From Bacillota bacterium (lineage in GTDB: Bacteria; Bacillota; Clostridia; Acetivibrionales; JAMNXU01), in contig JAMNXU010000026.1 of assembly GCA_023623175.1 (NCBI GenBank), positions 10,383 to 74,382 of the forward strand: a stretch of DNA of 64,000 nt. The letters are read 5' to 3'. A model generated the notes under the pieces. That model ran no database searches, was not told the DNA's origin, and saw only the letters and a program-made list of their open reading frames with translations. The stretch's first letter is position 1. Each line of letters starts with the position of its first letter. This document shows, in pieces, positions 1,540-43,060 of this stretch. The position numbers and the translations under genes are program-made.

Positions 1540-3741
1540 GTGGAAAAGCTGAAGTTAAAATTAAAAGACCGATACAATATCATGCTGATACTTTTCGTAC
1601 TGGCCGGCGCCGTCATAATAGGCCAGCTTGTAAACCTGCAGCTGGTCAACGGCAGCCAGAACCTTGAGGAATCCAAGATGAAGCTTCTCAACACGTGGAA
1701 GGTCACTGCAAGAAGGGGAAATATCCTTGACAGAAACGGAATCCCGCTTGCAATAAGCAGGCAGGCCTACAAGGTACAGATAATAAAGGCAAAGCTCAGC
1801 GATGATGAACTGAACCGGTGCCTTTACAACCTCATTAAGCTTTTCGAGAGAAACAATGAGTCATGGTTCAATGATTTCACGAAACTCATAACTTTTGAAA
1901 AAGTAACGGAAAAAGGAACCGACGGCAAAAACACAACGGTAATAAAGCTTGGTTTCGGTCCCTGGACCTCAGGGAAAACCTCCAAGGAAAAACTGGAGTC
2001 GCTCAAGGCGACCTTCAAAAGGGAACTCGGGCTTCGCAGCGCCAGGCTTAACAGCATATCATCGCTGACGGAATTTTTTGAATATCTCCGCAACGATGTG
2101 TACAAGATTGACAAAAAATTTTCCGATGAAGACGCTTACAAAATAATGACACTGCGGTATCAGATCAGGGGATTTGACACCAACACTCCCATGACCATTG
2201 CCCAGGACGTCAGCGAAAAGACAATGGCGATTATAGAAGAAATGCACAATGAGTACCCTGGAGTCACAACGGACGTAGAGCCCGTTCGCATGTACATGGA
2301 CGGGTATCTCGCAGCCCATGTCCTTGGCTATGTTGGAAAGATAGACGAACCCAAAAAGGGATATGACATAAACAGCATCATAGGAAAATGCGGCGTCGAA
2401 CTCGCAGCGGAAAAATATCTTCGCGGAAAGGACGGGATACGGTCGGTCAAGGTAAATACCATGGGCCGTAAGACCGGTGACCTGGATTACAACGAAGAAC
2501 CGGCCATTCCCGGCAACGATGTCCAGATCACGCTGGATATGAATCTGCAAAGAGTCGCCGCCCAGGCACTGGAAAGAAGGATATATGAAATCAGGCAAAA
2601 CTCGTATGAATACGGTACCTGGGACAGGAGAAACTTCCGCGATGCATGCGCCGGCGCCGTTGTCGCCATTGATGTGCGTACCGGGGAAGTTCTTGCAATG
2701 GCCAGCTATCCTTCTTATGATCCGTCCCTGTTTTTGCCCGGTTCAAAAACGAAGCAGGAACTCCAGGCCCTCGAGGACCTGCTTACAAACAAGAGCGGCT
2801 TATTCAACATGAACAACAGGGCCATTTCAGGCTCCTATGCCCCGGGCTCCACGTTCAAACCCCTTGTTGCCATTGCGGGACTTGAAGAAGGGGTAATAAA
2901 ACCCGGTGAAAAAATCCTTGACGAGGGTTACCTGAGATTCTCAGACCGCACGCTGTACTGCCTTTCGGGCGGACATGGCTATATAAACGTACAGCAGGGA
3001 CTGTACACCTCGTGCAACATATTCTTTTACAAGATAGGCATGGCAACTGGTATAGACAAGATAGCCAAATGGGCCACCTATTTCGGGCTTGGCAAAAAAA
3101 CGGGCATTGACGTGGACTCCGGCGCCGAGTCTGCCGGAACGCTGGCAACAAGGGAGTTAAAATGGAAAATCGAGGGCACCGAATGGTACCCGCTGAACAC
3201 GGCAATGGCCTCCATAGGGCAGCTATACAACAGCTTCACCCCGCTGCAGCTCGCCAACTACACTGCGGCCATCGCCAACGGAGGACGCCTGTACCGCCCA
3301 TATATCATTAAAAGAGTGATAGACAACAACGGACAAATTATACAGGAGACTACTCCCAAGTACAAGAAAATACCCGTCAAGGAATCTACGCTCAAGGCAA
3401 TCCGCGAAGGCATGGAAGCCGTTACAAGCCACTACGACGGGACGGCCACCGTCGTGTTCAGGGACCTTCCCATCAAGGTTGCCGGAAAAACCGGTACTGC
3501 CGAAGTAGGAACGGGAAGCGGAGAAACGAAATCCAACAACGGTGTATTCATATCCTACGCTCCCGCCGGCGACCCGAACAGGCCGCCTGAAATCGCGGTG
3601 GCAGTGGTTATTGAGCACGGAGTCTATGGGTACTTTGCGGCGCAGGTGGCAAAAGAGATATTTATAGAATACTTTGGCCTGAACAAGACCAAGACCGATT
3701 CCAGCGCGCTGACCGCCGACGTGCCCCAGATTATATGGTAA
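1540..3741 (+). CDS. Class B penicillin-binding protein (PBP2-type transpeptidase)
   Basis: It has an N-terminal TM anchor (IMLILFVLAGAVIIGQL) and the SxxK (GSTFKP), SxN (TSCN) and KTG (AGKTGTAE) motifs. I moved the start to the GTG at 1540, 6 nt after GGGAGG. The track ORF start at 1417 overlaps alr and has no RBS. Confidence 0.85.
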   Translation: MEKLKLKLKDRYNIMLILFVLAGAVIIGQLVNLQLVNGSQNLEESKMKLLNTWKVTARRGNILDRNGIPLAISRQAYKVQIIKAKLSDDELNRCLYNLIKLFERNNESWFNDFTKLITFEKVTEKGTDGKNTTVIKLGFGPWTSGKTSKEKLESLKATFKRELGLRSARLNSISSLTEFFEYLRNDVYKIDKKFSDEDAYKIMTLRYQIRGFDTNTPMTIAQDVSEKTMAIIEEMHNEYPGVTTDVEPVRMYMDGYLAAHVLGYVGKIDEPKKGYDINSIIGKCGVELAAEKYLRGKDGIRSVKVNTMGRKTGDLDYNEEPAIPGNDVQITLDMNLQRVAAQALERRIYEIRQNSYEYGTWDRRNFRDACAGAVVAIDVRTGEVLAMASYPSYDPSLFLPGSKTKQELQALEDLLTNKSGLFNMNNRAISGSYAPGSTFKPLVAIAGLEEGVIKPGEKILDEGYLRFSDRTLYCLSGGHGYINVQQGLYTSCNIFFYKIGMATGIDKIAKWATYFGLGKKTGIDVDSGAESAGTLATRELKWKIEGTEWYPLNTAMASIGQLYNSFTPLQLANYTAAIANGGRLYRPYIIKRVIDNNGQIIQETTPKYKKIPVKESTLKAIREGMEAVTSHYDGTATVVFRDLPIKVAGKTGTAEVGTGSGETKSNNGVFISYAPAGDPNRPPEIAVAVVIEHGVYGYFAAQVAKEIFIEYFGLNKTKTDSSALTADVPQIIW

Positions 3742-3889
3742 GTCAATAGTGTAGTTAAAGTAAGTCATTAGTGTAGTTAACAATTTAATGCTATGGCAAA
3801 TGTCCAATGGGCTGGAAAATAAATTTTTCAAATAATTCTCCAAATAATACCTTAAGTAATACCTCAAATAATTCCTTTAAGCATTACAA

Positions 3890-3940
3890 GTAAAAACAGC
3901 CGCCGACAAACCGGTTTGACCGGCAAATCGGCGGCTGATT
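3890..3940 (-). terminator. Intrinsic terminator downstream of proA (weakly bidirectional, also follows PBP2)
   Basis: A GC-rich stem (CAGCCGCCGA...TCGGCG(C)CTG with an inner CCGG/CCGG pairing) is followed by TTTTTAC on the minus strand. Confidence 0.6.
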
Positions 3941-3988
3941 TCATCAGCGGATGTTTTGTCAGCAGATGTTTTGTCAGCGGATGGCTTT

Positions 3989-5239
3989 TCAGCGAATCTG
4001 TCCGCTTCCGAATATAATATACTTGGTTGTCGTCAATTCTCTAAGCCCTATGGGCCCGCGGGCATGAAGCTTCTGGTTGCTTATTCCGATTTCGGCGCCG
4101 AAACCGAATTCCCCGCCGTCGGTAAACCGAGTTGAAGCATTTACATATACGGCGGCAGCGTCGACCTCCTGGAGGAACTTCCGGGCATTGTCATAATTCC
4201 TCGTAACTATCGCCTCGGAGTGTTTCGTGCCGTATTTATTAATGTGGTCAATGGCTTCTTCAAGGCTGTCGACGACTTTTACGGCCAAAATGTAATCGAG
4301 GTACTCGGTGTACCAGTCCTCCTCCGTTGCCGGCAATGCATCGGGGAAGATTGCGCGCGTCTTTTCGCAGCCCCTGAGCTCTACTCCCAGGTTTTTCAGC
4401 GAAGCGAGGGCTGACGGGATGAATTTTTCCGCCACCGCCGCATGGACGAGCAGTGTTTCGGCGGCATTGCAGACGGCCGGCCTGCTTGTTTTTGCGTTTA
4501 TAATGATTTTTTCTCCCATTTCAAGGTCGGCGTCGCTGTCAATATACACATGGCAGTTGCCCGTTCCTGTCTCAATCACGGGCACCGTGGCATTTTTCAC
4601 CACCGCCTCTATAAGTCCTGCACCTCCGCGCGGTATCAGCAGGTCAACATATTTATTGAGCTTCATGAGCTCTGTTGCCGTTTCCCTGCTGGTATCCTCC
4701 ACAAGCTGCACCGCGTCCTCGGGCACATCGGTTCCCGCCAGGGCTTCTGAAATCACTTTTACGATGGCCTTGTTTGAATTGATGGCTTCGCTTCCTCCCC
4801 TGAGAATAACTGCGTTGCCGGACTTCAGGCAAAGTCCTGCGGCATCGGTGGTCACATTGGGCCTTGCCTCGTAAACCATGCCAATGACACCGATAGGCAC
4901 CCTCTGCTGTCCTATCTGCAGGCCGTTTGGGCGCTTCCACATGGAAATCACTTCCCCGACGGGATCGGGGAGCGCTGCTATTTGCCTCAATCCGTCGGCC
5001 ATGCCCGCTATTCTTTCGGGATTGAGTGTAAGCCTGTCTATCATTGCCCTGGAAACGTTCTTCTTCCGCGCGTTTTCCACGTCGACTTGATTTGCCTCAA
5101 GTATGCTGTCACAATTCTGTACAAGGAAATCGGCCATCCTGTTAAGCGCTTTGTCCTTTTGTGCCGATGACAGGCTGCTCAGTCTGAACGCAGCCTTTTT
5201 GGCCTTCTCTCCCTTTAAAAGCAGCTCGCTCACATTCAC
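3989..5239 (-). CDS. proA: Gamma-glutamyl phosphate reductase
   Basis: Full-length match to ProA-type aldehyde dehydrogenases. The N-terminus [26 protein letters not shown] and the ...[16 protein letters not shown]... block are typical. Start codon is GTG. Confidence 0.95.
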
Positions 5240-6236: not shown

Positions 6237-6959
6237 TCACATCTTCGCCAGCGTGATGTCGCCCCAGGCCGCAAGCCTGTCCCCCACGATGACCAACGCT
6301 CCCTCAACTCCCTCGATTGAAGCAGCGAATTCAAGGGCCCGTTCCATATCATCGGCGCATTTCACATGGTTGCCGAGCGCCGTGGCAGCGGCGTCTGCCA
6401 GGGCGGCGTCCCGCGCCAGTATAACGGCGGCATCAGCTTTGCCGAAGCTGAGCGAATGGCCTACGGTCCCCGAGGACGTGCATATTCCCACGGGAGTCCT
6501 GCCCGGCTCGATTTCCACGGCTATTTTCTGGCTCAGCGGAGATAAGCCGGCATAAATGCCTATTTTTCTAACAGAATTGGTTTTAATAAATATATCGCCG
6601 CCGTTTTCCACAATTACCTCGGGACTATGCTTCAGCAGTTCCTTTCCCACGGCTTCGCTTATTGCCCCCGCCACGGCTGCCATTGGTCCGACACCAGCCT
6701 TTTTCGCGGCCTCGCACATGCTTATTGCGATGTCCGGTGCGCCGGGCAAAGGTGATACCGGCACAAGCGAAGTCAAAAAAACAGGTTGCAGCTTTATATA
6801 AACTTCGAGCTGCAGCCTGTATTTCCTTACAAGACTTAAAGCCAGGTCGTGGAGATTTGAATGCGCAGCAATCTGCAAATCGGTTTCCCTGACGCACACG
6901 TTAAAATACTCGAGATTGGCGGCTTTGAACAGATTGCGGTATTTCCTTTCTTCATACAT
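6237..6959 (-). CDS. UPF0280 / COG2122 ApbE-superfamily protein (sulfide-dependent Cys/Hcy biosynthesis accessory protein)
   Basis: Length and sequence are typical of UPF0280 (GVGPMAAVAGAISE..., GICTSSGTVGHSLSFGKADA). It lies immediately downstream of the COG1900 and NIL-ferredoxin genes. Confidence 0.7.
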   Translation of the reverse strand: MYEERKYRNLFKAANLEYFNVCVRETDLQIAAHSNLHDLALSLVRKYRLQLEVYIKLQPVFLTSLVPVSPLPGAPDIAISMCEAAKKAGVGPMAAVAGAISEAVGKELLKHSPEVIVENGGDIFIKTNSVRKIGIYAGLSPLSQKIAVEIEPGRTPVGICTSSGTVGHSLSFGKADAAVILARDAALADAAATALGNHVKCADDMERALEFAASIEGVEGALVIVGDRLAAWGDITLAKM

Positions 6960-7091
6960 CGGACATCTCTCCGGATTTATTCAAGAACTTCTGCCAAAGG
7001 CCTTCATATCATTAAATCAGGTACCAGTAGAGCTCCCGGCCGGGAGCAAGCGGACCTGTCGTTAAATGTTACATGCTCATGACTTCCAATG

Positions 7092-7490
7092 TTACACGCT
7101 CATGACTTTCAGCGGGCAGGCCTTTACGCACAATTCGCAGACATAGCATTTTTCCTTGTCAAAGGTCAGGCTCCAGTCATGCTTGTCCATCTGGAGCGCT
7201 CCCGACGGGCAGACGGCTGTGCATGCTCCGCAATGGACGCATTTGTCCTCCTGCCAGATGATGCTTTTATTGAACAATTTGTATCTTATACCCTCTCTCT
7301 CCAGGAATCCCAGGCCTTCGCGGATATTGGCCTCGTCCCCCTCAAAATCGGCTACCAGCCTGCCTTCCTTGTTCAGGCTTACATCGGCATTCAGTATGTT
7401 TATGCGCAGGTCAAAATCCTTTATGAGGTGATAGGTAACGGGTTTTGTAACCTTGTCCGCAGGGAAACTCATGTATACCTTAATCTTCAT
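7092..7490 (-). CDS. NIL-domain protein fused to a 2x[4Fe-4S] ferredoxin (MA1822-like)
   Basis: An N-terminal NIL-like domain is followed by two CxxCxxCxxxCP motifs (CVHCGACTAVCP and CYVCELCVKACP). Confidence 0.8.
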   Translation of the reverse strand: MKIKVYMSFPADKVTKPVTYHLIKDFDLRINILNADVSLNKEGRLVADFEGDEANIREGLGFLEREGIRYKLFNKSIIWQEDKCVHCGACTAVCPSGALQMDKHDWSLTFDKEKCYVCELCVKACPLKVMSV

Positions 7491-25277: not shown

Positions 25278-28200
25278 TTATTCCTTGCCTTCGTCGTCGG
25301 AATCCCCGAGAACATCGTCTTCAAGGTCGATGGCCTCACTTTCGCCGTCGGAGTCCATTTCAAAAAGCTTGTCGGTAAGATCGGCATCAAGGTTGTCATC
25401 CAGATCCATGTCAAAATCGTCGATGTCCGCATCAAGGCCGTCGTCAAGAATGTCATTGAGGGCATCGTCAAGCTTGTCGCCGAGGTCACCGTCGGAAACG
25501 ATATCGGAAAGCTCGAGATCGTCAATATCCATGTCGTCCTCCGATACATCCTCGGCTTCATCGAACTCTCCAAGCGGGACATCGTCCTCGCGTCCCTCGA
25601 TATTGACGCTGAGATCCTCGAGTTCGTCGTCCACGGACTCCTCGATCGCCACTTCTTCCTTCTCCTCTGAATAAACCTTGATGTCAAGGCACAGGCTCTG
25701 CAATTCCTTGATCAGCACCTTGAAGGATTCCGGAATGCCCGGTTCGGGAACGTTTTCTCCCTTTACGATAGCTTCGTAGGTTTTTACCCTTCCGACAACG
25801 TCATCGGACTTCACCGTCAGCAGCTCCTGCAAAGTGTAAGCTGCACCGTAGGCTTCGAGAGCCCATACTTCCATTTCTCCGAACCTCTGCCCGCCGAACT
25901 GGGCTTTTCCTCCGAGAGGCTGCTGCGTAACGAGCGAGTAAGGTCCGGTTGACCTTGCGTGAATCTTGTCGTCCACGAGATGGAGCAGTTTCATCATGTA
26001 CATGTATCCGACGGTTACACGGTTTTCAAACGGAAGACCGGTTCTGCCGTCGTAAAGTATGCTCTTTCCGTCCTCAGCAAGATTTGCGAGCCGCAAGGTT
26101 TCTATAATATCCTCCTCGGTCGCTCCGTCAAATACCGGCGAAGCCACTTTCCATCCAAGAGCTTTGGCTGCGTATCCCAGGTGCACTTCCAGGACCTGGC
26201 CGATATTCATACGTGACGGAACGCCCAGCGGGTTGAGAACTATTTCGAGAGGCGTGCCGTCAGGAAGGAACGGCATATCTTCTTCAGGGAGTATTCTTGA
26301 AATAACACCCTTGTTACCGTGTCTTCCTGCCATCTTGTCACCTACGGATATCTTTCTCTTATGCGCCACGTAAACCCTGACAAGCTGGTTGACCCCGGGC
26401 GGCAATTCGTCCCCGTTTTCTCTCGTAAATACTTTCACGTCAACAACAATACCCTGCTCGCCATGGGGAACCCTGAGGGAAGTATCGCGCACCTCCCTGG
26501 CCTTTTCACCGAAGATGGCCCTGAGCAGTCTTTCTTCGGCTGTAAGCTCCGTTTCTCCCTTGGGAGTAACCTTGCCCACAAGTATGTCTCCCGACCTGAC
26601 TTCGGCGCCGATTCTGACTATTCCCCTTTCATCGAGGTCTTTCAGAGTATCTTCGCCTACGTTGGGAATATCCCTTGTTATTTCCTCGGGACCCAGCTTG
26701 GTGTCCCTGGCTTCAGCTTCGTATTCCTCTATGTGAATTGAAGTGAAAATATCTTCCTTAACCAGTTTTTCGCTGATCAGTATGGCGTCCTCATAGTTGT
26801 AGCCTTCCCAGGACATGAAACCTATGAGCACGTTCCTGCCCAGGGAAATTTCACCGTTATCCGTTGAAGGACCGTCGGCTATCACATCTCCCTTTTCAAC
26901 CCTGTCGCCCTTGCGTACAATGGGTCTCTGGTTGATGCAGGTGCCCTGGTTTGAACGCACAAATTTGAGCAGCTTGTATACGTCTTTTTTGCCGTCATCG
27001 GTCTTCACGATTATTTGATCGGAAGCGACCTTTTCAACGTAACCGCTGTTCTTTGCAATGACAACAACGCCTGAATCGATGGCCGCCTTGTATTCCATGC
27101 CGGTGCCGATGATCGGGCTTTCGGTCTTGATAAGCGGCACGGCCTGGCGCTGCATGTTGGCTCCCATGAGTGCGCGGTTGGCATCATCGTTTTCCAGGAA
27201 CGGGATCATCGCCGTTGCCACCGAAACCAGCTGTTTCGGCGAAACGTCCATAAAGTCTACCTTATCCCTTTCCACCTCGATAATGTCCTCGCCGTATCGG
27301 CAAAGCAGCTTCTGATTGACAAACCATCCGTTTTCATCAAGCGGCTCGGTGGACGGAGCAATCCTGTACTCATCCTCTTCGTCAGCCGTGAGATATACTA
27401 TTTTATCGGTAACTTTCTTGTTTTCCTGGTCAACAACCCTGTACGGAGCTTCAATAAAGCCGTACTCGTTTATACGCGCGTAAGTGCTGAGCTGGCTTAT
27501 CAGACCGATGTTCGGACCTTCAGGAGTTTCTATCGGGCACATGCGGCCGTAGTGGGAATGATGGACGTCACGCACTTCAAAGCCTGCCCTTTCCCTGCTC
27601 AAACCTCCGGGGCCCAGTGCGCTGAGCCTTCTCTTATGCGCAAGCTCAGCCAGCGGGTTGGGCTGGTCCATGAACTGCGACAACTGGCTGCTTCCGAAGA
27701 ACTCCTTGATTGCCGCCACAACGGGCCTGATGTTAATCAGGTTCTGCGGCGTTGCCACATCAAGGTCCTGGATTGTCATACGCTCCTTGACAACCCTTTC
27801 CATCCTCGCGAGACCGATCCTGAACTGGTTCTGGAGCAGTTCTCCCACCGAGCGCAGCCTCCTGTTCCCAAGATGGTCGATGTCATCGGTGGTCCCGACT
27901 CCGTGGTTGAGGTTGAAAAGGTAATTGACGGAAGCAATTATGTCTTCGCGCGTAATATGCTTGGGCACAAGCTCGTCTGCTCTTTCTTTCAGGGCTCTCT
28001 TTATTTCCTCGGGAGTCCTGTTTGCTTCGAGTATTTCCTTGAGCACGTCATACTTGACTTTTTCCTTTATTCCCGTGTCGCTTACATCGAAATCACAGAA
28101 CGCCCGGAGATTTACTGTCCCGTTTCCTATAACCTTTACCTTTTTACCTTCCACAGACAGGTAAACTTCATTTATTCCCGCGTCCTGGATTTGCTCCGCT

Positions 28201-29138
28201 TTCTTTCTATCAATAAGCTCATCCGCCGCGACAAGAATCTCGCCGGTTTCAGGATCAACGACGTCTTCCGCGGCTCTGAAGCCGTTTATTCTCGCAGCCA
28301 GTGAAAGTTTTTTGTTAAACTTGAACCTTCCTACCTTGGCAAGGTCGTATCTTTTTGAATCAAAGAAAAGATTGTTCAAAAGATTCTGGGCGCTTTCAAC
28401 GGTTGGAGGCTCGCCCGGTCTCAGCCTCTTGTATATTTCAAGCAGACCTTCTTCAGCGGACTTGGCATTGTCCTTCTGAATGGTGGCAAGAACCCTTTCG
28501 TCTTCTCCGAGAAGCTCAGTGATCTCGAGATCCGTGCCGAATCCAAGGGCTCTTATAAGAACGGTGATGGGAAGCTTTCTCGTCCTGTCGATTCTCACAT
28601 ACACAACATCGCTGGAATCGGTTTCATATTCCAGCCATGCACCGCGGTTAGGAATAACGGTGCTGGAGAAAAGCTTTTTCCCCAATTTGTCAATTTTCAT
28701 GTCATAGTAAATTCCCGGCGATCTGACGAGCTGGCTGACAATAACCCTCTCGGCGCCGTTTATGATAAACGTGCCGTTATCGGTCATGAGCGGGAAATCG
28801 CCCATGAATATTTCCTGCTCCTTGACCTCTCCGGTCTCCTTGTTAATAAGGCGGACCTTCACTTTCAAAGGAGCCGCATAGGTCGCATCCCTTTCCTTGC
28901 ATTCTTCCACTGAATACTTGGGTTTTTCGTCGAGACTATAGCCTACAAATTCGAGGATTAAATTACCGGTATAGTCAGTTATTGGAGATACATCCCTGAA
29001 GACTTCCATCAAGCCTTCTTCTTTGAACCATTGGTAGGAATTTTTTTGTACTTCAATGAGATTTGGCATTTCTAAAATTTCTTCGATTCTGGAGTAGCTC
29101 ATTCTAGTATTCTTGCCCAATTTTACAGGGTGCACCAT
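25278..29138 (-). CDS. rpoB: DNA-directed RNA polymerase subunit beta, with about 130-aa acidic C-terminal extension
   Basis: Full-length RpoB. The last roughly 129 residues are about half Asp/Glu. Confidence 0.98.
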
Positions 29139-29338
29139 TAAAAATCACCTCATAAGTTATGACATAGTGTTGCCTGTCGGCGCGACGGGTTCTATGTACG
29201 GACCCCATGTGACAAGGGCTTCCGGCATTGCCGGAAACCTCGCAGTTTTATGTGATTTTGCGGGTATAAATTGCTAAAAAAAATCAAATACTAATCTTTG
29301 TCATTGTTTTACAGCCTTTAAAATATTATTAACAGTTA

Positions 29339-29367
29339 TTGCCTTGTTTATTCCGCTATGGTATAAT
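29339..29367 (+). promoter_or_regulatory. Candidate plus-strand promoter, divergent and back-to-back with the rpoB promoter, firing across that promoter's DNA into the repeat array
   Basis: TTGCCT - 17 nt - TATAAT, with the extended -10 TGgTATAAT. Confidence 0.35.
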
Positions 29368-29438
29368 CAGTCCAGGTTCAAATTTATCCTTGCGCCGGTT
29401 ACTGGGCACAGTGGTACTAAATTATAACGCAGTTTACA

Positions 29439-29467
29439 ATTCTAACATACAGCTTTCAACTTGTCAA
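29439..29467 (-). promoter_or_regulatory. Candidate sigma-A promoter of rpoBC
   Basis: The minus strand reads TTGACA - 17 nt - TAGAAT, preceded by TGT (extended -10-like). It leaves a 5' UTR of about 290 nt ending in the RBS GAGGTGA. Confidence 0.55.
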
Positions 29468-29498
29468 TAATTTGTCCTGCATTTTTTTGCATACAAGT

Positions 29499-29827
29499 GG
29501 GACACGGGGACGGTTCTCCTGTCCCACTTCTTTTTTGCCACACCCGGGACACGGGGGCGGTTCTCTTGTCCCACTCCTTTTTCGCAACACCCGGGACACG
29601 GGGGCGGTTCTCTTGTCTCACTCCTTTTTCGCAACACCCGGGACATGGGGACGGTTCTCTTGTCTCACTCCTTTTTCGCAACACCCGGGGCATGGGGACG
29701 GTTCTCTTGTCTCACTCCTTTTTCGCAACACCCGGGGCATAGGGACGGTTCTCTTGTCTCACTCCTTTTTCGCAACACCCGGGGCATGGGGACGGCTCTC
29801 TTGTCCCGCTTCTTTCTCTCCATTACA
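29499..29827 (+). repeat. Tandem array of 7 x 47 nt; each unit is a GGGACA...TGTCCC hairpin plus a T-tract
   Basis: The period is exact, with unit starts at 29499, 29546, 29593, 29640, 29687, 29734 and 29781. Neighbouring units differ by 1-2 nt. Confidence 0.9.
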
Positions 29828-29900
29828 ACCGGTATTTTCATGGTAATCTTGTACAAGCGGACGGTTCCCTTCGCGGTTCTTATCTTATACCCGGAAAACC

Positions 29901-29989
29901 GGGACAGAAGAACCGTCCCTGTGTCCCGAAGAACCGTCCCTGTGTCCCAGTTGGGACAGGAGAACCGTCCCCGTGTCCCGCCCGTGTCC
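29901..29989 (-). repeat. Inverted (minus-oriented) full and partial copies of the 27-nt hairpin core
   Basis: Segments 29901-29927 and 29953-29979 are reverse complements of the array core. Partial copies lie at 29928-29948 and 29980-29989. Confidence 0.85.
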
Positions 29990-30000
29990 TGAAGAAACCG

Positions 30001-30032
30001 AAAAAAGACTGCCTGTTTTTTTACAGACAGCC
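30001..30032 (-). terminator. Intrinsic terminator/attenuator directly after rplL
   Basis: The minus strand reads GGCUGUCUGU-AAAAAA-ACAGGCAGUC-UUUUUU. Its two G.U pairs would be mismatches on the plus strand. Confidence 0.65.
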
Positions 30033-30054
30033 TCTTTCGAATGGGCAAAAGTTG

Positions 30055-30444
30055 TTATTTTATTTCTACTACAGCGCCGACTTCCTTGAACTTTGCTTCG
30101 ATGGCAGCTGCTTCTTCCTTGGAGACGTTCTCCTTTACCGGCTTGGGAGCGCCTTCCACAAGGTCTTTTGCTTCCTTGAGGCCAAGGTTGGTTACTTCTC
30201 TGACAACCTTGATAACCTTGATCTTTTCAGGACCGACTTCCTTGAGGATTACGTCAAATTCGGTCTTTTCTTCTGCCGGAGCTGCTGCTTCACCGCCAGC
30301 TGCGGGAGCTGCTGCTGCAACTGCTACGGGAGCTGCTGCTGATACTCCGAATTTTTCTTCCAGTGCCTTTACAAGATCTGCAAGTTCAAGAACCGTAAGA
30401 GTTTCAATCTCGTTAATCAAATTTGTAACTTTTTCGCTAGCCAT
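30055..30444 (-). CDS. rplL: 50S ribosomal protein L7/L12
   Basis: Typical L12, with the Ala-rich hinge and the [22 protein letters not shown] block. Confidence 0.97.
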
Positions 30445-33913: not shown

Positions 33914-34879
33914 TCAAGAATTTTTCCCGATGGTATATGAAGGTTTGGACAACCGTCTCTGCACAAATATAAGTCCGCCTATCCCGACCGCCACCCCGAG
34001 CCACAGCGTAGAAAATCTCGTGATAATCGTCGTCACGGTGGCCGTCTGGCGGTTTACGCCGGCCATCAGCAAAAGGCCGAATATGCTTCCCTCTGTTACA
34101 AGTAGTCCGCCGGGAAGCATGGAGACGGCGCCAACAACGGAAGAGAACGCCACGATAAACAGCGACGAAAGCACCGGTATGGGCGTGCCGAAGGATTTGA
34201 GCACGAGGTAAATGATAATGCCTTCAAATGACCACGACACAATACCGATGGCTATTGAGAACAATACGCTGCCCAGGCACAGCAGCTGATAGGAGCTTTC
34301 ATAAAAGGAATCCAAAGCGCCGGCAAATCTTTTTAACAGCGGCAGTTTTTTCATTACTGAAATAACGCGGCGAGCAAAGGGCCTGTACCTGATAAATATG
34401 ATAAATAAAACCACGCCTGCAAAAGCCGCTGCCAGTACGCTGTAACCATACCGGAACTCAAGGGCGCCGATTGCCGCAAGAATAACCAAGCTGATACCGT
34501 CGGTCATCCTCTCGATTATAACCATCGGGGATGTTACGCTGACAGGAGTCCCGTAGAACTCCTTTATAAGGAAGGATTTCAAAAACTCGCCGAGTTTCCC
34601 CGGCGTAACAGTCATGCTAAGGCCTGAAATGAAAATGCCAAGGCTGTCGCTCCTTTTCATTTTGATGCCCAGGAGTGACAGGTAATATTCCCATTTTATA
34701 TATCGAAAGCAGTAATTCAGCGGAGCCATCATCAGTATGAGCGGAAGAAATTTCGGGTTGAAGGTCGAAAAGGAATCGACAATCTTCCGAAAATCAGAAT
34801 ACACGCCCATTACCATAAGTATTGCAACGCCCGCTATCAGCGATACCAGGATCCTTCTCTTCAGCTGTCCGAAATTCAA
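33914..34879 (-). CDS. Flippase-like membrane protein (UPF0104 / LPG_synthase_TM family)
   Basis: About 8 TM segments and an N-terminal pattern typical of the family (...FRYIKWEYYLSLLGI...). Confidence 0.65.
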   Translation of the reverse strand: MNFGQLKRRILVSLIAGVAILMVMGVYSDFRKIVDSFSTFNPKFLPLILMMAPLNYCFRYIKWEYYLSLLGIKMKRSDSLGIFISGLSMTVTPGKLGEFLKSFLIKEFYGTPVSVTSPMVIIERMTDGISLVILAAIGALEFRYGYSVLAAAFAGVVLFIIFIRYRPFARRVISVMKKLPLLKRFAGALDSFYESSYQLLCLGSVLFSIAIGIVSWSFEGIIIYLVLKSFGTPIPVLSSLFIVAFSSVVGAVSMLPGGLLVTEGSIFGLLLMAGVNRQTATVTTIITRFSTLWLGVAVGIGGLIFVQRRLSKPSYTIGKNS

Positions 34880-34922
34880 GCTGCTTCCTCCACAACGTTT
34901 TTATTCAGTCTTATTTAACCTG

Positions 34923-35100
34923 CCTGCATTGTCCAGTTTGTACCGTTCAGCCTGATTAAATCAGCCTGTATTGTTCAGTCTGCACTGTCCGGCTTTAAAT
35001 CATCCTGCATTGTTCAGTCTGCACCGTTAAGCCTGATTAATTCAGCCTGCAACTTATTCAGCTGGTTACCCGGTCTTCATTTATCAGCTGCCCTGCCCGG
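34923..35100. repeat. Degenerate tandem repeat, about 4 x 39-42 nt
   Basis: CCTGCATTGT(C/T)CAGT(T/C)TG(T/C)ACCGTT(C/A)AGCCTGATTAA(A/T)TCAG-like units start at about 34923, 34965, 35004 and 35046. Confidence 0.6.
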
Positions 35101-35159: not shown

Positions 35160-36245
35160 TTATTTATATTGGGTAAAAAGCCTTCCCCACTTGCTGTTTT
35201 GCTGGTAATCGCGGACTATCTTTTTGCCCTTTACCGGGTACCAGTAGTAGTCGTGGTACAATGCCGAGCCAAGGACAAATATATACACGAGCGGCGTGTG
35301 GAAGAAAAGCTTCTGCAGCGGGCGCAGCGGACCAAACCACATGATGTCCCCGACCCTGCTTGCTCCGTTGTCTCCCACCTCGAAACCGAGGTTTACCTGG
35401 GATATGTCCTCTCCCACCACTTCAATGTTCTCGGGATTGCCGTTGCCAAGCCCTGCCCTGTCTCCTTCGCGGATGTAGTCAATCTGCAGGGGGTCAAAAC
35501 CCATCATTTTTGAAGATATGGCGTCCACGGCCACCTGGTCTCCGCCGGCTATAATGTAATCAGCTTCAACGGGTTTCATCGTCCTCGGTCCCGGACCGTT
35601 CCCCGCTGTTGTTCCGTCAATAACGGCAAAGATTCCCGTGTGGATTTCTTTTTGAATGGCAAGCAAATCCACGAGCGTATCGTGTATGACGCTGTGGGTG
35701 TAATGCCTTTTTGTGTTCAGCAGCCCGCCGAAAGCATTTTTCATCGCGCCCGTTGTCGTGGTATAAATATGGCATTTCATCGTCGGCAGGTGAATTATGT
35801 TTTTGCCGATGAAATAATCGGGAATGTAAATGCCCTCGGGGTATACCTTGTCGAGAACGCGCATCTTTGCCCTGGGCTCGTACCGGATCCATTTCATGTC
35901 TTCTTTTTTAAAGTTGTAAAGTACCGGGATTTCGTACTTTTTGAATATTTCAACATACTTGTTGAGTCTTTCGCCCTTGTAGGCATTGGTAACGACAGTC
36001 TTGTTCTGGACACACACTATGTCGTCGTAACCGTCCTCGCGAAGGCACTGGATAACGGCCTCCAGCTGCCAAGGCGTGGTGTTGGCTCCCGGGTAGGGAA
36101 AATGCCACGATATATTGTCCTTGAGAATGGTGGTTTTCCCTTTTTCCAGGTAATCCTTGTATCCGGCCATCCTCATTAATTTTTTGTAATCTTCTATTAC
36201 CGTTTCAGGTTTCGTTTTGAGCACCGCAACCCTTGATTTCTCCAC
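35160..36245 (-). CDS. DUF362 domain protein with hydrophobic C-terminal tail
   Basis: DUF362-type core (...VLKTKPETV..., ...KNIIHLPTMKCHIYTTTTGAMKNAFGG..., ...VIDGTTAGNGPGP...). The start is set at the GTG at 36245, behind AAAGGAGGAGG and just after the UbiA stop. Confidence 0.65.
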   Translation of the reverse strand: MEKSRVAVLKTKPETVIEDYKKLMRMAGYKDYLEKGKTTILKDNISWHFPYPGANTTPWQLEAVIQCLREDGYDDIVCVQNKTVVTNAYKGERLNKYVEIFKKYEIPVLYNFKKEDMKWIRYEPRAKMRVLDKVYPEGIYIPDYFIGKNIIHLPTMKCHIYTTTTGAMKNAFGGLLNTKRHYTHSVIHDTLVDLLAIQKEIHTGIFAVIDGTTAGNGPGPRTMKPVEADYIIAGGDQVAVDAISSKMMGFDPLQIDYIREGDRAGLGNGNPENIEVVGEDISQVNLGFEVGDNGASRVGDIMWFGPLRPLQKLFFHTPLVYIFVLGSALYHDYYWYPVKGKKIVRDYQQNSKWGRLFTQYK

Positions 36246-36259
36246 TATATCCTCCTCCT

Positions 36260-37147
36260 TTAATAAAACAGCCAAACAATAACGACGCTTGTGGCCACCC
36301 ACAGTAGAATGCTGACGAGCAGCGGCTTGTCCTGCAGGAGAACCAGCTCGGGATTGCCCCCCATGTCGCGCGTAGACACAAGGTACTGGTAACGGAATAT
36401 GCCGTAAAGCACAAAGGGAATTGTCAGCATCATGTAGTGAGATTTGCCCGCGGTGAAAGTATAAAGCATGTATGACATCACTGTTGCCGATGTTGTAACC
36501 GACAGCATCTGGTCAATCAGCTCCGGCGTGTACTCGTCAAGTATTTTCCTGTGCCGGCCCGCATCGGCGCTCAATGTCAGGAGCTCGTTCTTGCGTTTAT
36601 TCAGCGCCAGGAACAGCGATAACAGCGTTGAGCATACGATGAGCCACGGCGAAATCTCCACGTGAATCGCGAGAGCCCCGCCGACGGTCCTGAGCACGAA
36701 TCCCGAAGCAATCAGGAGAACATCCAGGATAATTACCTGCTTGAGTTTTATCGAATAAAGCAGCGTCAGCAAAAAATACAGCGCAAGCACGATGAAAAAA
36801 CCAAAATCCAGCATCCAGGCGAGCGCGATTGATACCGCGAACACCGCCACAGCCCAGGCCGTTGCCGTTCGGGGACGCAGTTTCCCCGAAGCCACGGGCC
36901 TGTGGCACTTCTTTGGATGCAACGCGTCCCTTTCGCGGTCTATTACATCATTGATGAGATAAACCGAACCCGACACCGCGCAAAAAAGCAAAAACGCGGC
37001 AATGGTACGTAAAACGGGCTCAATCTCGATAAATGCCCTGGCAAATATGAGCCCTGCGAACACAAAGCTGTTTTTTGTCCACTGTTTCGGCCTCATGGCC
37101 GTTAAAATATAGTATAGCGTTTTAATGTCCGTTCCCTTCCTTGTCAT
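36260..37147 (-). CDS. UbiA-family prenyl-phosphate phosphoribosyltransferase (decaprenyl-phosphate 5-phosphoribosyltransferase-like, Rv3806c type)
   Basis: The N-terminal RPKQWTKN signature, the Asp-rich motif YLINDVIDRERD, and about 8-9 TM segments. Confidence 0.7.
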   Translation of the reverse strand: MTRKGTDIKTLYYILTAMRPKQWTKNSFVFAGLIFARAFIEIEPVLRTIAAFLLFCAVSGSVYLINDVIDRERDALHPKKCHRPVASGKLRPRTATAWAVAVFAVSIALAWMLDFGFFIVLALYFLLTLLYSIKLKQVIILDVLLIASGFVLRTVGGALAIHVEISPWLIVCSTLLSLFLALNKRKNELLTLSADAGRHRKILDEYTPELIDQMLSVTTSATVMSYMLYTFTAGKSHYMMLTIPFVLYGIFRYQYLVSTRDMGGNPELVLLQDKPLLVSILLWVATSVVIVWLFY

Positions 37148-42905: not shown

Positions 42906-43060
42906 GTTTCCAAACTTAGACCGTATTCCTCCAGGCCAGTTTCGGACCCGGTCTTATTCCCAAACTTGGACCGTTTTCCTGCAGGCCGGTTTCCGACCTG
43001 GTCCTGTTTCCAAATCTTTTCTGTTTCCCGGCCTGTTTCCGCAGCCCGGTTTATTCCTGA
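42906..43060 (-). repeat. 3 x about 50-nt tandem repeat in the ilvD 5' region
   Basis: Units start near 42908, 42958 and 43008. Each can form a hairpin on the minus strand. Confidence 0.6.

Follow-up and report, generated by a model that had tools for sequence, protein, structure and literature searches.

A cluster of REP-like hairpin repeats between rplL and rpoB of a clostridial genome and its probable link to RAYT transposases

The rplL-rpoB spacer and its repeat cluster

The window, a stretch of 64,000 nt from contig JAMNXU010000026.1 of a Bacillota bacterium (Clostridia, Acetivibrionales), carries between rplL and rpoB a cluster of hairpin-forming repeats, which occupies positions 29482-29996, about 515 nt, and falls precisely between the rplL terminator and the rpoB promoter. 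Comparison with other genomes suggests that these repeats are copies of a repetitive extragenic palindromic (REP)-like element, probably the partner of a REP-associated tyrosine transposase (RAYT), that multiplied locally. The locus comprises the following features.

25278-29138, minus strand: rpoB coding sequence, a 1286-aa open reading frame (ORF) with 84% identity to Acetivibrio clariflavus RpoB; downstream flank of the spacer
29139-29438, minus strand: rpoB 5' leader, between the conserved promoter and the rpoB start and outside the repeat cluster; GAGGTGA precedes the start
29439-29467, minus strand: rpoB promoter, TTGACA-17-TG-TAGAAT, 11 of 12 consensus matches; directly downstream of the cluster in the operon sense
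29499-29827, plus strand: seven head-to-tail 47-nt units starting at 29499, 29546, 29593, 29640, 29687, 29734 and 29781 (Tandem Repeats Finder and core matches)
29853-29871, plus strand: degenerate eighth forward core (ACAAGCGGACGGTTCCCTT), a member of direct-repeat family D3 with 84% identity
29901-29927, minus strand: full core in the operon sense, followed by GGTTTTCC on the minus strand (core match)
29928-29948, minus strand: truncated core (5' arm and apex, without the 3' arm) that abuts the next full core with a 21-nt period (Tandem Repeats Finder)
29953-29979, minus strand: full core in the operon sense, the same 27-mer as 29499-29525 (unit 1), 1 mismatch to the query; inverted pair I1/I2
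29980-29992, minus strand: fragment of the core 5' arm (AGGACACGGGC) at the outer cluster edge, within inverted-repeat arm I1
30001-30038, minus strand: canonical intrinsic rplL terminator, a 16-pair stem followed by TTTTTT
30055-30444, minus strand: rplL (ribosomal protein L7/L12) coding sequence, a 129-aa ORF; upstream flank of the spacer

The assignments of rpoB, rplL, the rplL terminator and the rpoB promoter made in a preliminary description of this DNA were right. The closest RpoB relatives are 84-85% identical to the protein of the window, the rplL product shares 81% identity with the L7/L12 protein of a biogas metagenome-assembled genome (MAG; locus L108), whose gene carries the Pfam Ribosomal_L12 domain, and the terminator and promoter were retrieved by a terminator and promoter scan. 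Upstream of rplL lie rplJ and an L10 leader, the latter being the only Rfam match at gathering score. The spacer contains nine ORFs of at least 40 aa, which cross the repeats. A Pfam search of the four longest (83-127 aa) returned no credible match, in line with the earlier statement that the spacer has no credible ORF: one gave a sub-threshold match to Zn_ribbon_8 (17 bits, cutoff 34) and the other three gave none.

Each repeat unit consists of a 27-nt hairpin core, GGGACAyGGGGACGGTTCTCyTGTCCC, and a 20-nt linker, ACTCCTTTTTCGCAACACCC. The seven tandem 47-nt units described previously were recovered both by Tandem Repeats Finder (29499-29805, period 47, 6.5 copies, 95% matches, zero indels, score 502) and by a search for the core GGGACAnGGGGACGGTTCTCTTGTCCC with at most 3 mismatches, which found seven plus-strand copies at exact 47-nt steps and two full minus-strand copies against 0 in shuffles of the window; the seven-copy count derives from the short-read assembly of a 330-nt tandem repeat and may be unreliable. 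The 11-nt apex GGGACGGTTCT, with at most 1 mismatch, occurs ten times, always in the spacer, where 0.78 occurrences would be expected by chance in 64 kb. The description of seven equal units holds for the cores, all seven of which are present, and not for the linkers: the linker is the same across units 2-6 and has diverged in the seventh unit, which keeps its core. Adjacent units differ by one or two transitions, in a gradient, and every difference between units is a transition.

On the rplL side, two full and two partial cores in the inverted orientation were found as announced, and two sets of hairpins do converge between terminator and promoter. The truncated core and the full core next to it form a short repeat of their own (29907-29948, period 21, 2.0 copies, 100%). 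Identical 27-mers in opposite orientations (29499-29525 and 29953-29979) delimit the whole cluster; as read from the sequence, an inverted doublet and the repeats around RAYT genes have this geometry.

The forward strand of the unit 1 core is predicted to fold at -17.2 kcal/mol as RNA (z -2.6) and at -7.5 kcal/mol as DNA, and the reverse strand folds less well. The internal units reach -11.7 kcal/mol (z -1.0), which is no better than shuffled sequence, and a 102-nt minus-strand RNA over the three operon-sense copies reaches -47 kcal/mol (z -3.6) and ends in GGUUUU. The previously noted strand asymmetry, by which the forward strand folds better through G.T or G.U pairs, was thus confirmed. The apex pairs G.T, G-C and G.T close an ACGGT loop, and the hairpin of the repeat family presented below folds on one strand only. 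On the other strand the wobble pairs of the apex become C.A mismatches, which explains the asymmetry without invoking RNA; by analogy, a one-strand fold is what an enzyme acting on one strand of single-stranded DNA would need. The argument from substitutions that preserve G.U pairs had been presented as weak evidence, and it is weak, because all differences between units are transitions.

The core belongs to a repeat family of many Bacillota and Bacteroidota genomes

The pattern GGGACANNGGGACGGTTCT was scanned against the genomes of 185,579 species (596 Gb), for which about 70 chance matches are expected, and was found at at least 105 loci (162 matches listed). The 3' arm TGTCCC, which lies outside the search pattern, is exact in 87 of the 162 matches listed and has at least five of its six positions in 105. 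Because this arm is present though it was not part of the pattern, the matches beyond the chance fraction represent the same element. At most two of the six arm positions are present in 38 of the 162, and about a quarter of the matches look like chance. Single matches in Planctomycetes, Acidobacteria, an archaeon and Rhodobacteraceae have no 3' arm and were taken as chance. The core is not confined to the rplL-rpoB locus: the pattern search reveals copies of the REP type or of the type of miniature inverted-repeat transposable elements at many unrelated loci in several phyla.

Hosts among the matches listed include Lachnospiraceae, Oscillospiraceae (Faecousia, Faecalibacterium), Peptococcaceae, Desulfitobacteriia and Syntrophomonas, together with cultured Bacillus, Mesobacillus, Virgibacillus and Neobacillus and with Bacteroidales (Prevotellaceae, Muribaculaceae), and several genomes, MAGs or isolates, contribute multiple core-bearing contigs. 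In these genomes a copy may stand alone, form an inverted doublet across a 10-50-nt spacer or belong to a short direct run; inverted doublets are the commonest multi-copy form in the Bacteroidales and Lachnospiraceae loci among the matches listed. Direct tandem runs have a period of 44 nt in locus L088, 36 in L098, 29 in L045 and 21-22 in several others, and the seven-fold array of the window is the largest cluster among the loci examined. According to a crude gene call on the matches listed, 79% of the copies lie outside long ORFs, and of the flanking gene pairs 59 are tandem, 30 convergent and 14 divergent.

A profile built from 143 copies reads t-GGGACA-n-G-GGGACGGTTCT-t-t-TGTCCC-A-y-t-t-t, with positions 9-19 99-100% invariant. 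In the flanks of these 143 copies, position 0 is T in 57% and T is mildly enriched just 3' of the hairpin. No Rfam family matched the spacer and four RAYT loci at permissive E-values, where only sub-threshold, microRNA-like hairpin matches appeared, and a full-text literature search with the core sequence returned only coincidences with eukaryotic primers.

Between Bacillota, Bacteroidota and some Actinomycetota (for example loci L010, L022, L019 and L079) the 27-nt core hardly differs by a base, and exact copies of the window's unit 1 core occur in a Faecousia MAG and a Propionicimonas MAG. Transfer of a RAYT and repeat pair between phyla and extreme constraint are two candidate causes of this near-identity. 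Searches of viral contigs and plasmids gave no account of the cross-phylum spread: the core occurs four times in IMG/VR, which is the chance level and indicates no enrichment on viral contigs, and RAYT homologues are rare on plasmids (29 records, mostly partial).

Truncated cores of 21-22 nt, made of the 5' arm and apex and joined to a full core, occur in the window (29901-29948) and at six other loci: L017, L026 (2228-2298), L055 (2092-2140), L081 (2616-2664), L086 (3460-3508) and L087 (4514-4562). Their recurrence may point to a favoured site of breakage or joining immediately 3' of the apex, perhaps where the transposase cleaves. In L088, a Clostridia MAG from sheep gut, a segment of about 250 nt with forward cores and a reverse core is duplicated (6729-7211), the forward cores are each extended on the 3' side by the same 17 nt, ACTCAATGTCTGACTAy, and a frameshift interrupts the RAYT gene (3348-4132).

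At each of the 13 loci examined the repeat adjoins a gene for a Y1/HUH transposase, and at the nine with a readable copy on both flanks the copies are inverted around the gene. In the six loci derived from the DNA pattern, an ORF of 250-268 aa lies between inverted cores or beside one core, and in the five of them examined for flanks the inverted cores are 5-80 nt from the ORF ends. To avoid circularity, a second start was made from the protein side, independently of the DNA pattern. A profile search yielded more than 7,000 homologues, some of which are named RayT by the Joint Genome Institute, and seven were chosen without reference to DNA: those of a Clostridiaceae MAG, Desulfotomaculum defluvii, Thermohalobacter berrensis, Sporomusa acidovorans, a Clostridiales MAG, a Bacillota MAG and Sporomusa malonica. 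The apex hairpin adjoins the gene in all seven, on both sides and inverted in four. The other three are irregular: forward copies stand on either side of the gene in one, the contig ends 238 nt upstream in another, and a reverse transcriptase of the group II intron type is found upstream in the third. In Sporomusa malonica (L142, 1-1340), such an ORF (RVT_1) immediately precedes the RAYT gene, at the place expected for the upstream hairpin.

In the protein-derived loci the lower stem varies (CTCAAG/CTTGAG, GTGACAG/CTGTCAC, GAAACAGA/TTTGTTTC and others) while GGGACGGTTCT is unchanged. An alignment of 14 gene-flanking hairpins has 80% of its cells paired, compared with 65% in shuffles, none of 500 of which reached 80%, and its covariation score is 0.43 against 0.18 for shuffles and 0.08-0.20 for slid partners. 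Changes on both sides were observed in 8 of 12 pairs, and the three apex pairs are always G.T, G-C and G.T.

The core-flanked proteins match Pfam Y1_Tnp with 37-57 bits (cutoff 23) and the NCBIfam model for REP-associated tyrosine transposases, REP_Tyr_transpos, with 58-81 bits (cutoff 80), a threshold exceeded by one protein of four. The transposase alignment has no variation at the HUH histidines or the catalytic tyrosine. The C-terminus resembles a helix-turn-helix (HTH), with weak, below-cutoff matches to HTH_38 and HTH_26 and a conserved block RQ..(I/L)T. The only PDB match of the protein profile is E. coli TnpA-REP bound to its REP (4ER8, E = 3.8e-4); TnpA of IS608 was not matched.

At the corresponding site, relatives of the window share one architecture: rplL, a hairpin and T-run terminator equivalent to that of the window, 100-250 nt of AT-rich DNA, the TTGACAAGT promoter block, a long leader and rpoB. 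No core was found between the rplL terminator and the rpoB promoter in A. clariflavus, the biogas MAG (L108) or 19 metagenome loci, which represent about 14 distinct sequences and two of which stand in another gene context. Since these relatives lack the core at the site, the window carries a lineage-specific insertion of about 515 nt (29482-29996). In all, about 17 relatives retain the same rpoB promoter and have no core at this site.

The promoter block itself, TTGACAAGT-N11-TGTTAsAATTrTAAACTGCrTTATAAT, is common to the window, A. clariflavus, L108 and the 19 metagenome loci, and is conserved across Acetivibrionales-like genomes (window 29404-29467, minus strand; L106, L108, L116-L134). A further -10-like TATAAT follows the first at a distance of about 20 nt, and the block is followed on its 3' side by an AT-rich leader of 280-750 nt with a shared TGTTAATAATAwTTTAA motif. 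Block and leader may together constitute an rpoB leader or regulatory element. Further observations concern other parts of the window. The C-terminus of RpoB (25278-25500, residues ~1214-1286) is an extended, highly acidic tail rich in Asp, Glu and Leu, which makes the protein about 40 aa longer than its relatives. An unrelated 42-nt tandem repeat at 34904-35051 (3.6 copies, 76% matches, score 170 in Tandem Repeats Finder) is intergenic, between the minus-strand genes 33914-34879 and 35160-36302, and a 50-nt tandem repeat occupies 42910-43014 (2.1 copies, 83% matches, score 147).

Origin of the array and competing explanations

We consider, with a probability of about 0.75, that the cluster arose by local amplification of a REP-like hairpin, a repeat that flanks the gene of its cognate Y1 HUH transposase (RAYT or TnpA-REP type) and also occurs dispersed. 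An inverted, REPIN-like doublet or a single copy would have inserted between the rplL terminator and the rpoB promoter, in a permissive interval. One arm together with the 20-nt linker would then have been added unit by unit, to give seven 47-nt repeats, and the units would since have drifted. Their addition could have proceeded by replication slippage or unequal exchange, or by a cycle of cleavage, priming and rejoining as proposed for E. coli TnpA-REP acting on bacterial interspersed mosaic elements (BIMEs; PMC3333891), a model in which the TnpA-REP cleavage site lies in the linker 3' of the REP. By analogy, the constant unit of core plus linker would fit the cleavage route well, without proving it. 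Two sites with 99-100% conservation among the 143 family copies are altered in the array, by A12>G in units 2 and 3 and by T16>C in unit 7. This decay at family-invariant positions, together with the weak internal folds, fits drift after local amplification and not the upkeep of each unit. The array is most likely selfish or neutral DNA. The suggestion of a protein-binding array came close, by analogy, in that the hairpin is the kind of site recognised by a RAYT or TnpA-REP enzyme.

Several observations weigh against this interpretation. No copy of the core or apex was found outside the rplL-rpoB spacer in the 64-kb window, tblastn detected no RAYT gene in it, and the dispersal of the core and the presence of its cognate enzyme in the source organism are assumed. 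The unit-specific linker CACTCCTTTTTCGCAACACCC had no match in metagenome contigs. The GTAG tag at the hairpin foot is absent in the 143 copies, CGTC occurring only inside the apex on the reverse strand, and the element is consequently not a classical REP. With its constant 20-nt linker, the seven-fold direct array is larger and more regular than the other clusters examined, and its units are in direct orientation where E. coli BIMEs alternate. Finally, each unit carries a hairpin and T-run on the strand antisense to the operon, which would be compatible with a selected role.

Such a role was among those proposed in the preliminary description, as a novel, locus-specific terminator or insulator: the seven units would stop antisense transcription, and the three inverted copies would back the rplL terminator, insulating rpoBC from rplJL. 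A consensus scan does flag all seven plus-strand units as terminator-like (10 sites against 2.0 expected), and a plus-strand promoter-like site at 29339-29367 (10 of 12 matches, TG) points into the array. The very stable RNA structure of the three sense copies with its GGUUUU end, the mild T enrichment 3' of the hairpin in family copies and the depletion of these copies between divergent genes can be read in the same direction. However, the terminator-like calls depend on an alternative 7-pair stem with wobble pairs and on a lax tail rule that tolerates ACTCCTTTTT. The U-run, previously placed 4-5 nt after the stem, exists and begins 5-6 nt past it in the minimum-energy fold, being adjacent only under the alternative 7-bp stem, and the internal units fold like shuffles (z ~-1). 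Three of the seven units show decay where the family is invariant, the core is generic and linked to a transposase, and relatives with the same promoter and terminator have none of the units. The seven units are moreover antisense to the rplL-rpoB operon, and the three sense copies come after a canonical terminator that is already strong. A selected transcription barrier is hence unlikely, and the earlier proposal of a terminator or insulator specific to this locus did not stand. REP elements influence termination and mRNA stability in enterobacteria (reviewed in PMC3733652). Given the antisense units, the weak folds, the existing terminator and the relatives without units, effects on transcription here, through hairpins on read-through rplL transcripts or a weak hairpin and U-run on antisense RNA, are treated as a possible by-product.

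The cluster could also be the remnant of a RAYT locus (REPtron or TIRtron) from which the gene was deleted, in which case the outer inverted cores would be its former flanks and the 47-nt unit an amplified junction with the gene start. The outermost forward and inverted cores are indeed identical and follow each other in the forward-then-reverse order seen around RAYT genes, and the minus strand of units 4-7 (29661-29787) encodes MPRVLRKRSET, which fits the RAYT N-terminal MPRxxRxxSxT and shares 9 of 11 residues with the L088 protein. Yet this match has an E-value of 0.4-1.2 (tblastn, window), the M, P and T codons are supplied by the core itself, and the ATG exists only in units 4-7 after a derived C>T, unit 1 reading VSRVWQKRSGT. 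In real RAYT loci the start codon is at least 50 nt from the nearest core, and the site has no other gene trace. As a relic of a RAYT gene start, the peptide was rejected, being not significant, dependent on the derived C>T and probably a coincidence; a deleted RAYT locus appears improbable.

A combination of transposase and barrier can also be formulated, in which the GGGACGGTTCT hairpin is the unrecognised cognate REP of the HTH-bearing RAYT subclass, near-identical across Bacillota, Bacteroidota and some Actinomycetota, and in which a seven-fold array built here by the enzyme was co-opted as a strand-specific barrier between rplJL and rpoBC; in its entirety this proposal seems very doubtful.

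Another kind of array (CRISPR-like, plasmid-type iterons or a centromere, or sites for a dedicated rpoB regulator) is highly improbable: the regular 47-nt period and the palindromic 27-nt repeats beside a promoter would suit it, but no Rfam family matches, the core is common to hundreds of unrelated loci and to transposase flanks, and relatives keeping the same promoter lack it. A CRISPR array was ruled out because the 20-nt intervals are identical between units 2-6, and an rpoB leader RNA because the array lies upstream of the rpoB promoter.

Amplification of a RAYT-associated repeat also bears on annotation. Since a hairpin array at a conserved operon boundary can be read as a mobile-repeat insertion, such an array should be annotated as a terminator or regulatory element only with RNA data.

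Comparison with known repeat and transposase systems

RAYT-like genes with flanking inverted repeats that share GGGGWSAS have been described as TIRtrons or TIRYTs, moderately abundant families that also form dimers and clusters (Di Nocera et al. 2013, PMC3733652). Most TIRYTs belong to TnpA-REP subclass 2.1, whose proteins average ~238 aa and have a C-terminal Bac_DnaA_C or HTH domain (Quentin et al. 2018, PMC6006769). This subclass corresponds to Bertels' RAYT group 1, beside whose genes REP-like sequences were reported not to be found (PMC6006769). Group 1 is present in Clostridia, and its flanking 16-mer is found only ~12 times across a genome (Bertels et al. 2017, PMC5581495). By length, NHxH and FQ motifs and HTH, the core-flanked proteins appear to fit subclass 2.1 or RAYT group 1, a placement made without phylogeny. 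Many family copies begin with GGGGACAS (for example L004, L010 and L076), to be compared with the published consensus GGGGWSAS; the window copies begin with (T/C)GGGACAC, and their inner GGGGACGG is one position off GGGGWSAS, the comparison being with the published consensus only.

Taken on sequence grounds, the element is a RAYT/TIRYT-associated, REP-like repeat of known type; what appears new is the hairpin family in Gram-positive and Bacteroidales genomes and its local amplification in the window. To our knowledge, REP/RAYT systems are well described in Proteobacteria and hardly at all in Clostridia, Bacilli and Bacteroidales. For the family as a whole, a by-product of the analysis is that an HTH-bearing RAYT subclass gains a defined hairpin partner in genomes of Gram-positive bacteria and Bacteroidales. 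With its invariant apex and covarying stem, and its occurrence beside the gene across phyla, this hairpin is a concrete candidate substrate for that class of enzymes, for which in-vitro cleavage and strand-transfer assays offer a precedent (PMC3333891, PMC8266576). The GGGACGGTTCT hairpin is also a simple search key for annotating such repeats in gut and rumen genomes.

The E. coli REPs and BIMEs with TnpA-REP, known as REPtrons, are likewise short imperfect palindromes that fold on single-stranded DNA and are dispersed and mostly extragenic. They occur as singletons, inverted pairs and clusters and are inverted around a single Y1 HUH gene, and the 4ER8 match joins the two enzymes. In contrast to E. 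coli REPs, the GTAG tag is absent here and conservation centres on the apex GGGACGGTTCT in place of a 5' guide; the protein exceeds E. coli TnpA-REP by about 100 aa and has a C-terminal HTH. Unlike those of E. coli BIMEs, the seven units are direct with a fixed 20-nt linker, and the hosts are Clostridia, Bacilli and Bacteroidales.

The TIRtrons and TIRYTs resemble the present system in their RAYT-like protein of ~240-270 aa with a C-terminal HTH and in inverted repeats rich in GGGGAC or GGGACA, but the published examples include no Firmicutes (PMC3733652). With respect to subclass 2.1, the flanks described here are clear hairpins with a covarying stem and an invariant apex, whereas none were reported in PMC6006769.

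In the Pseudomonas fluorescens REPIN-RAYT system, where REPINs are REP doublets forming hairpins (Bertels and Rainey 2011, PMC3116915), the repeats are inverted hairpin doublets with a short spacer, a likeness shared by the identical inverted pair that bounds the window cluster. That system differs in sequence and in RAYT group, partial direct duplications at a 21-22-nt period are frequent here, and the doublets of the present family are known from sequence alone.

The subterminal hairpins of IS200/IS605 elements are, like this repeat, strand-specific imperfect hairpins read as single-stranded DNA by a Y1 HUH enzyme; their ends, however, are in the same orientation on one strand and move with the gene, whereas the hairpins here are inverted and vastly outnumber the gene. 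Intrinsic terminators, lastly, share the G+C-rich stem-loop followed by a T-run, but in the cluster the T-run lies 5-6 nt from the main stem, the internal units are weak, seven units are antisense and the units are not conserved in relatives.

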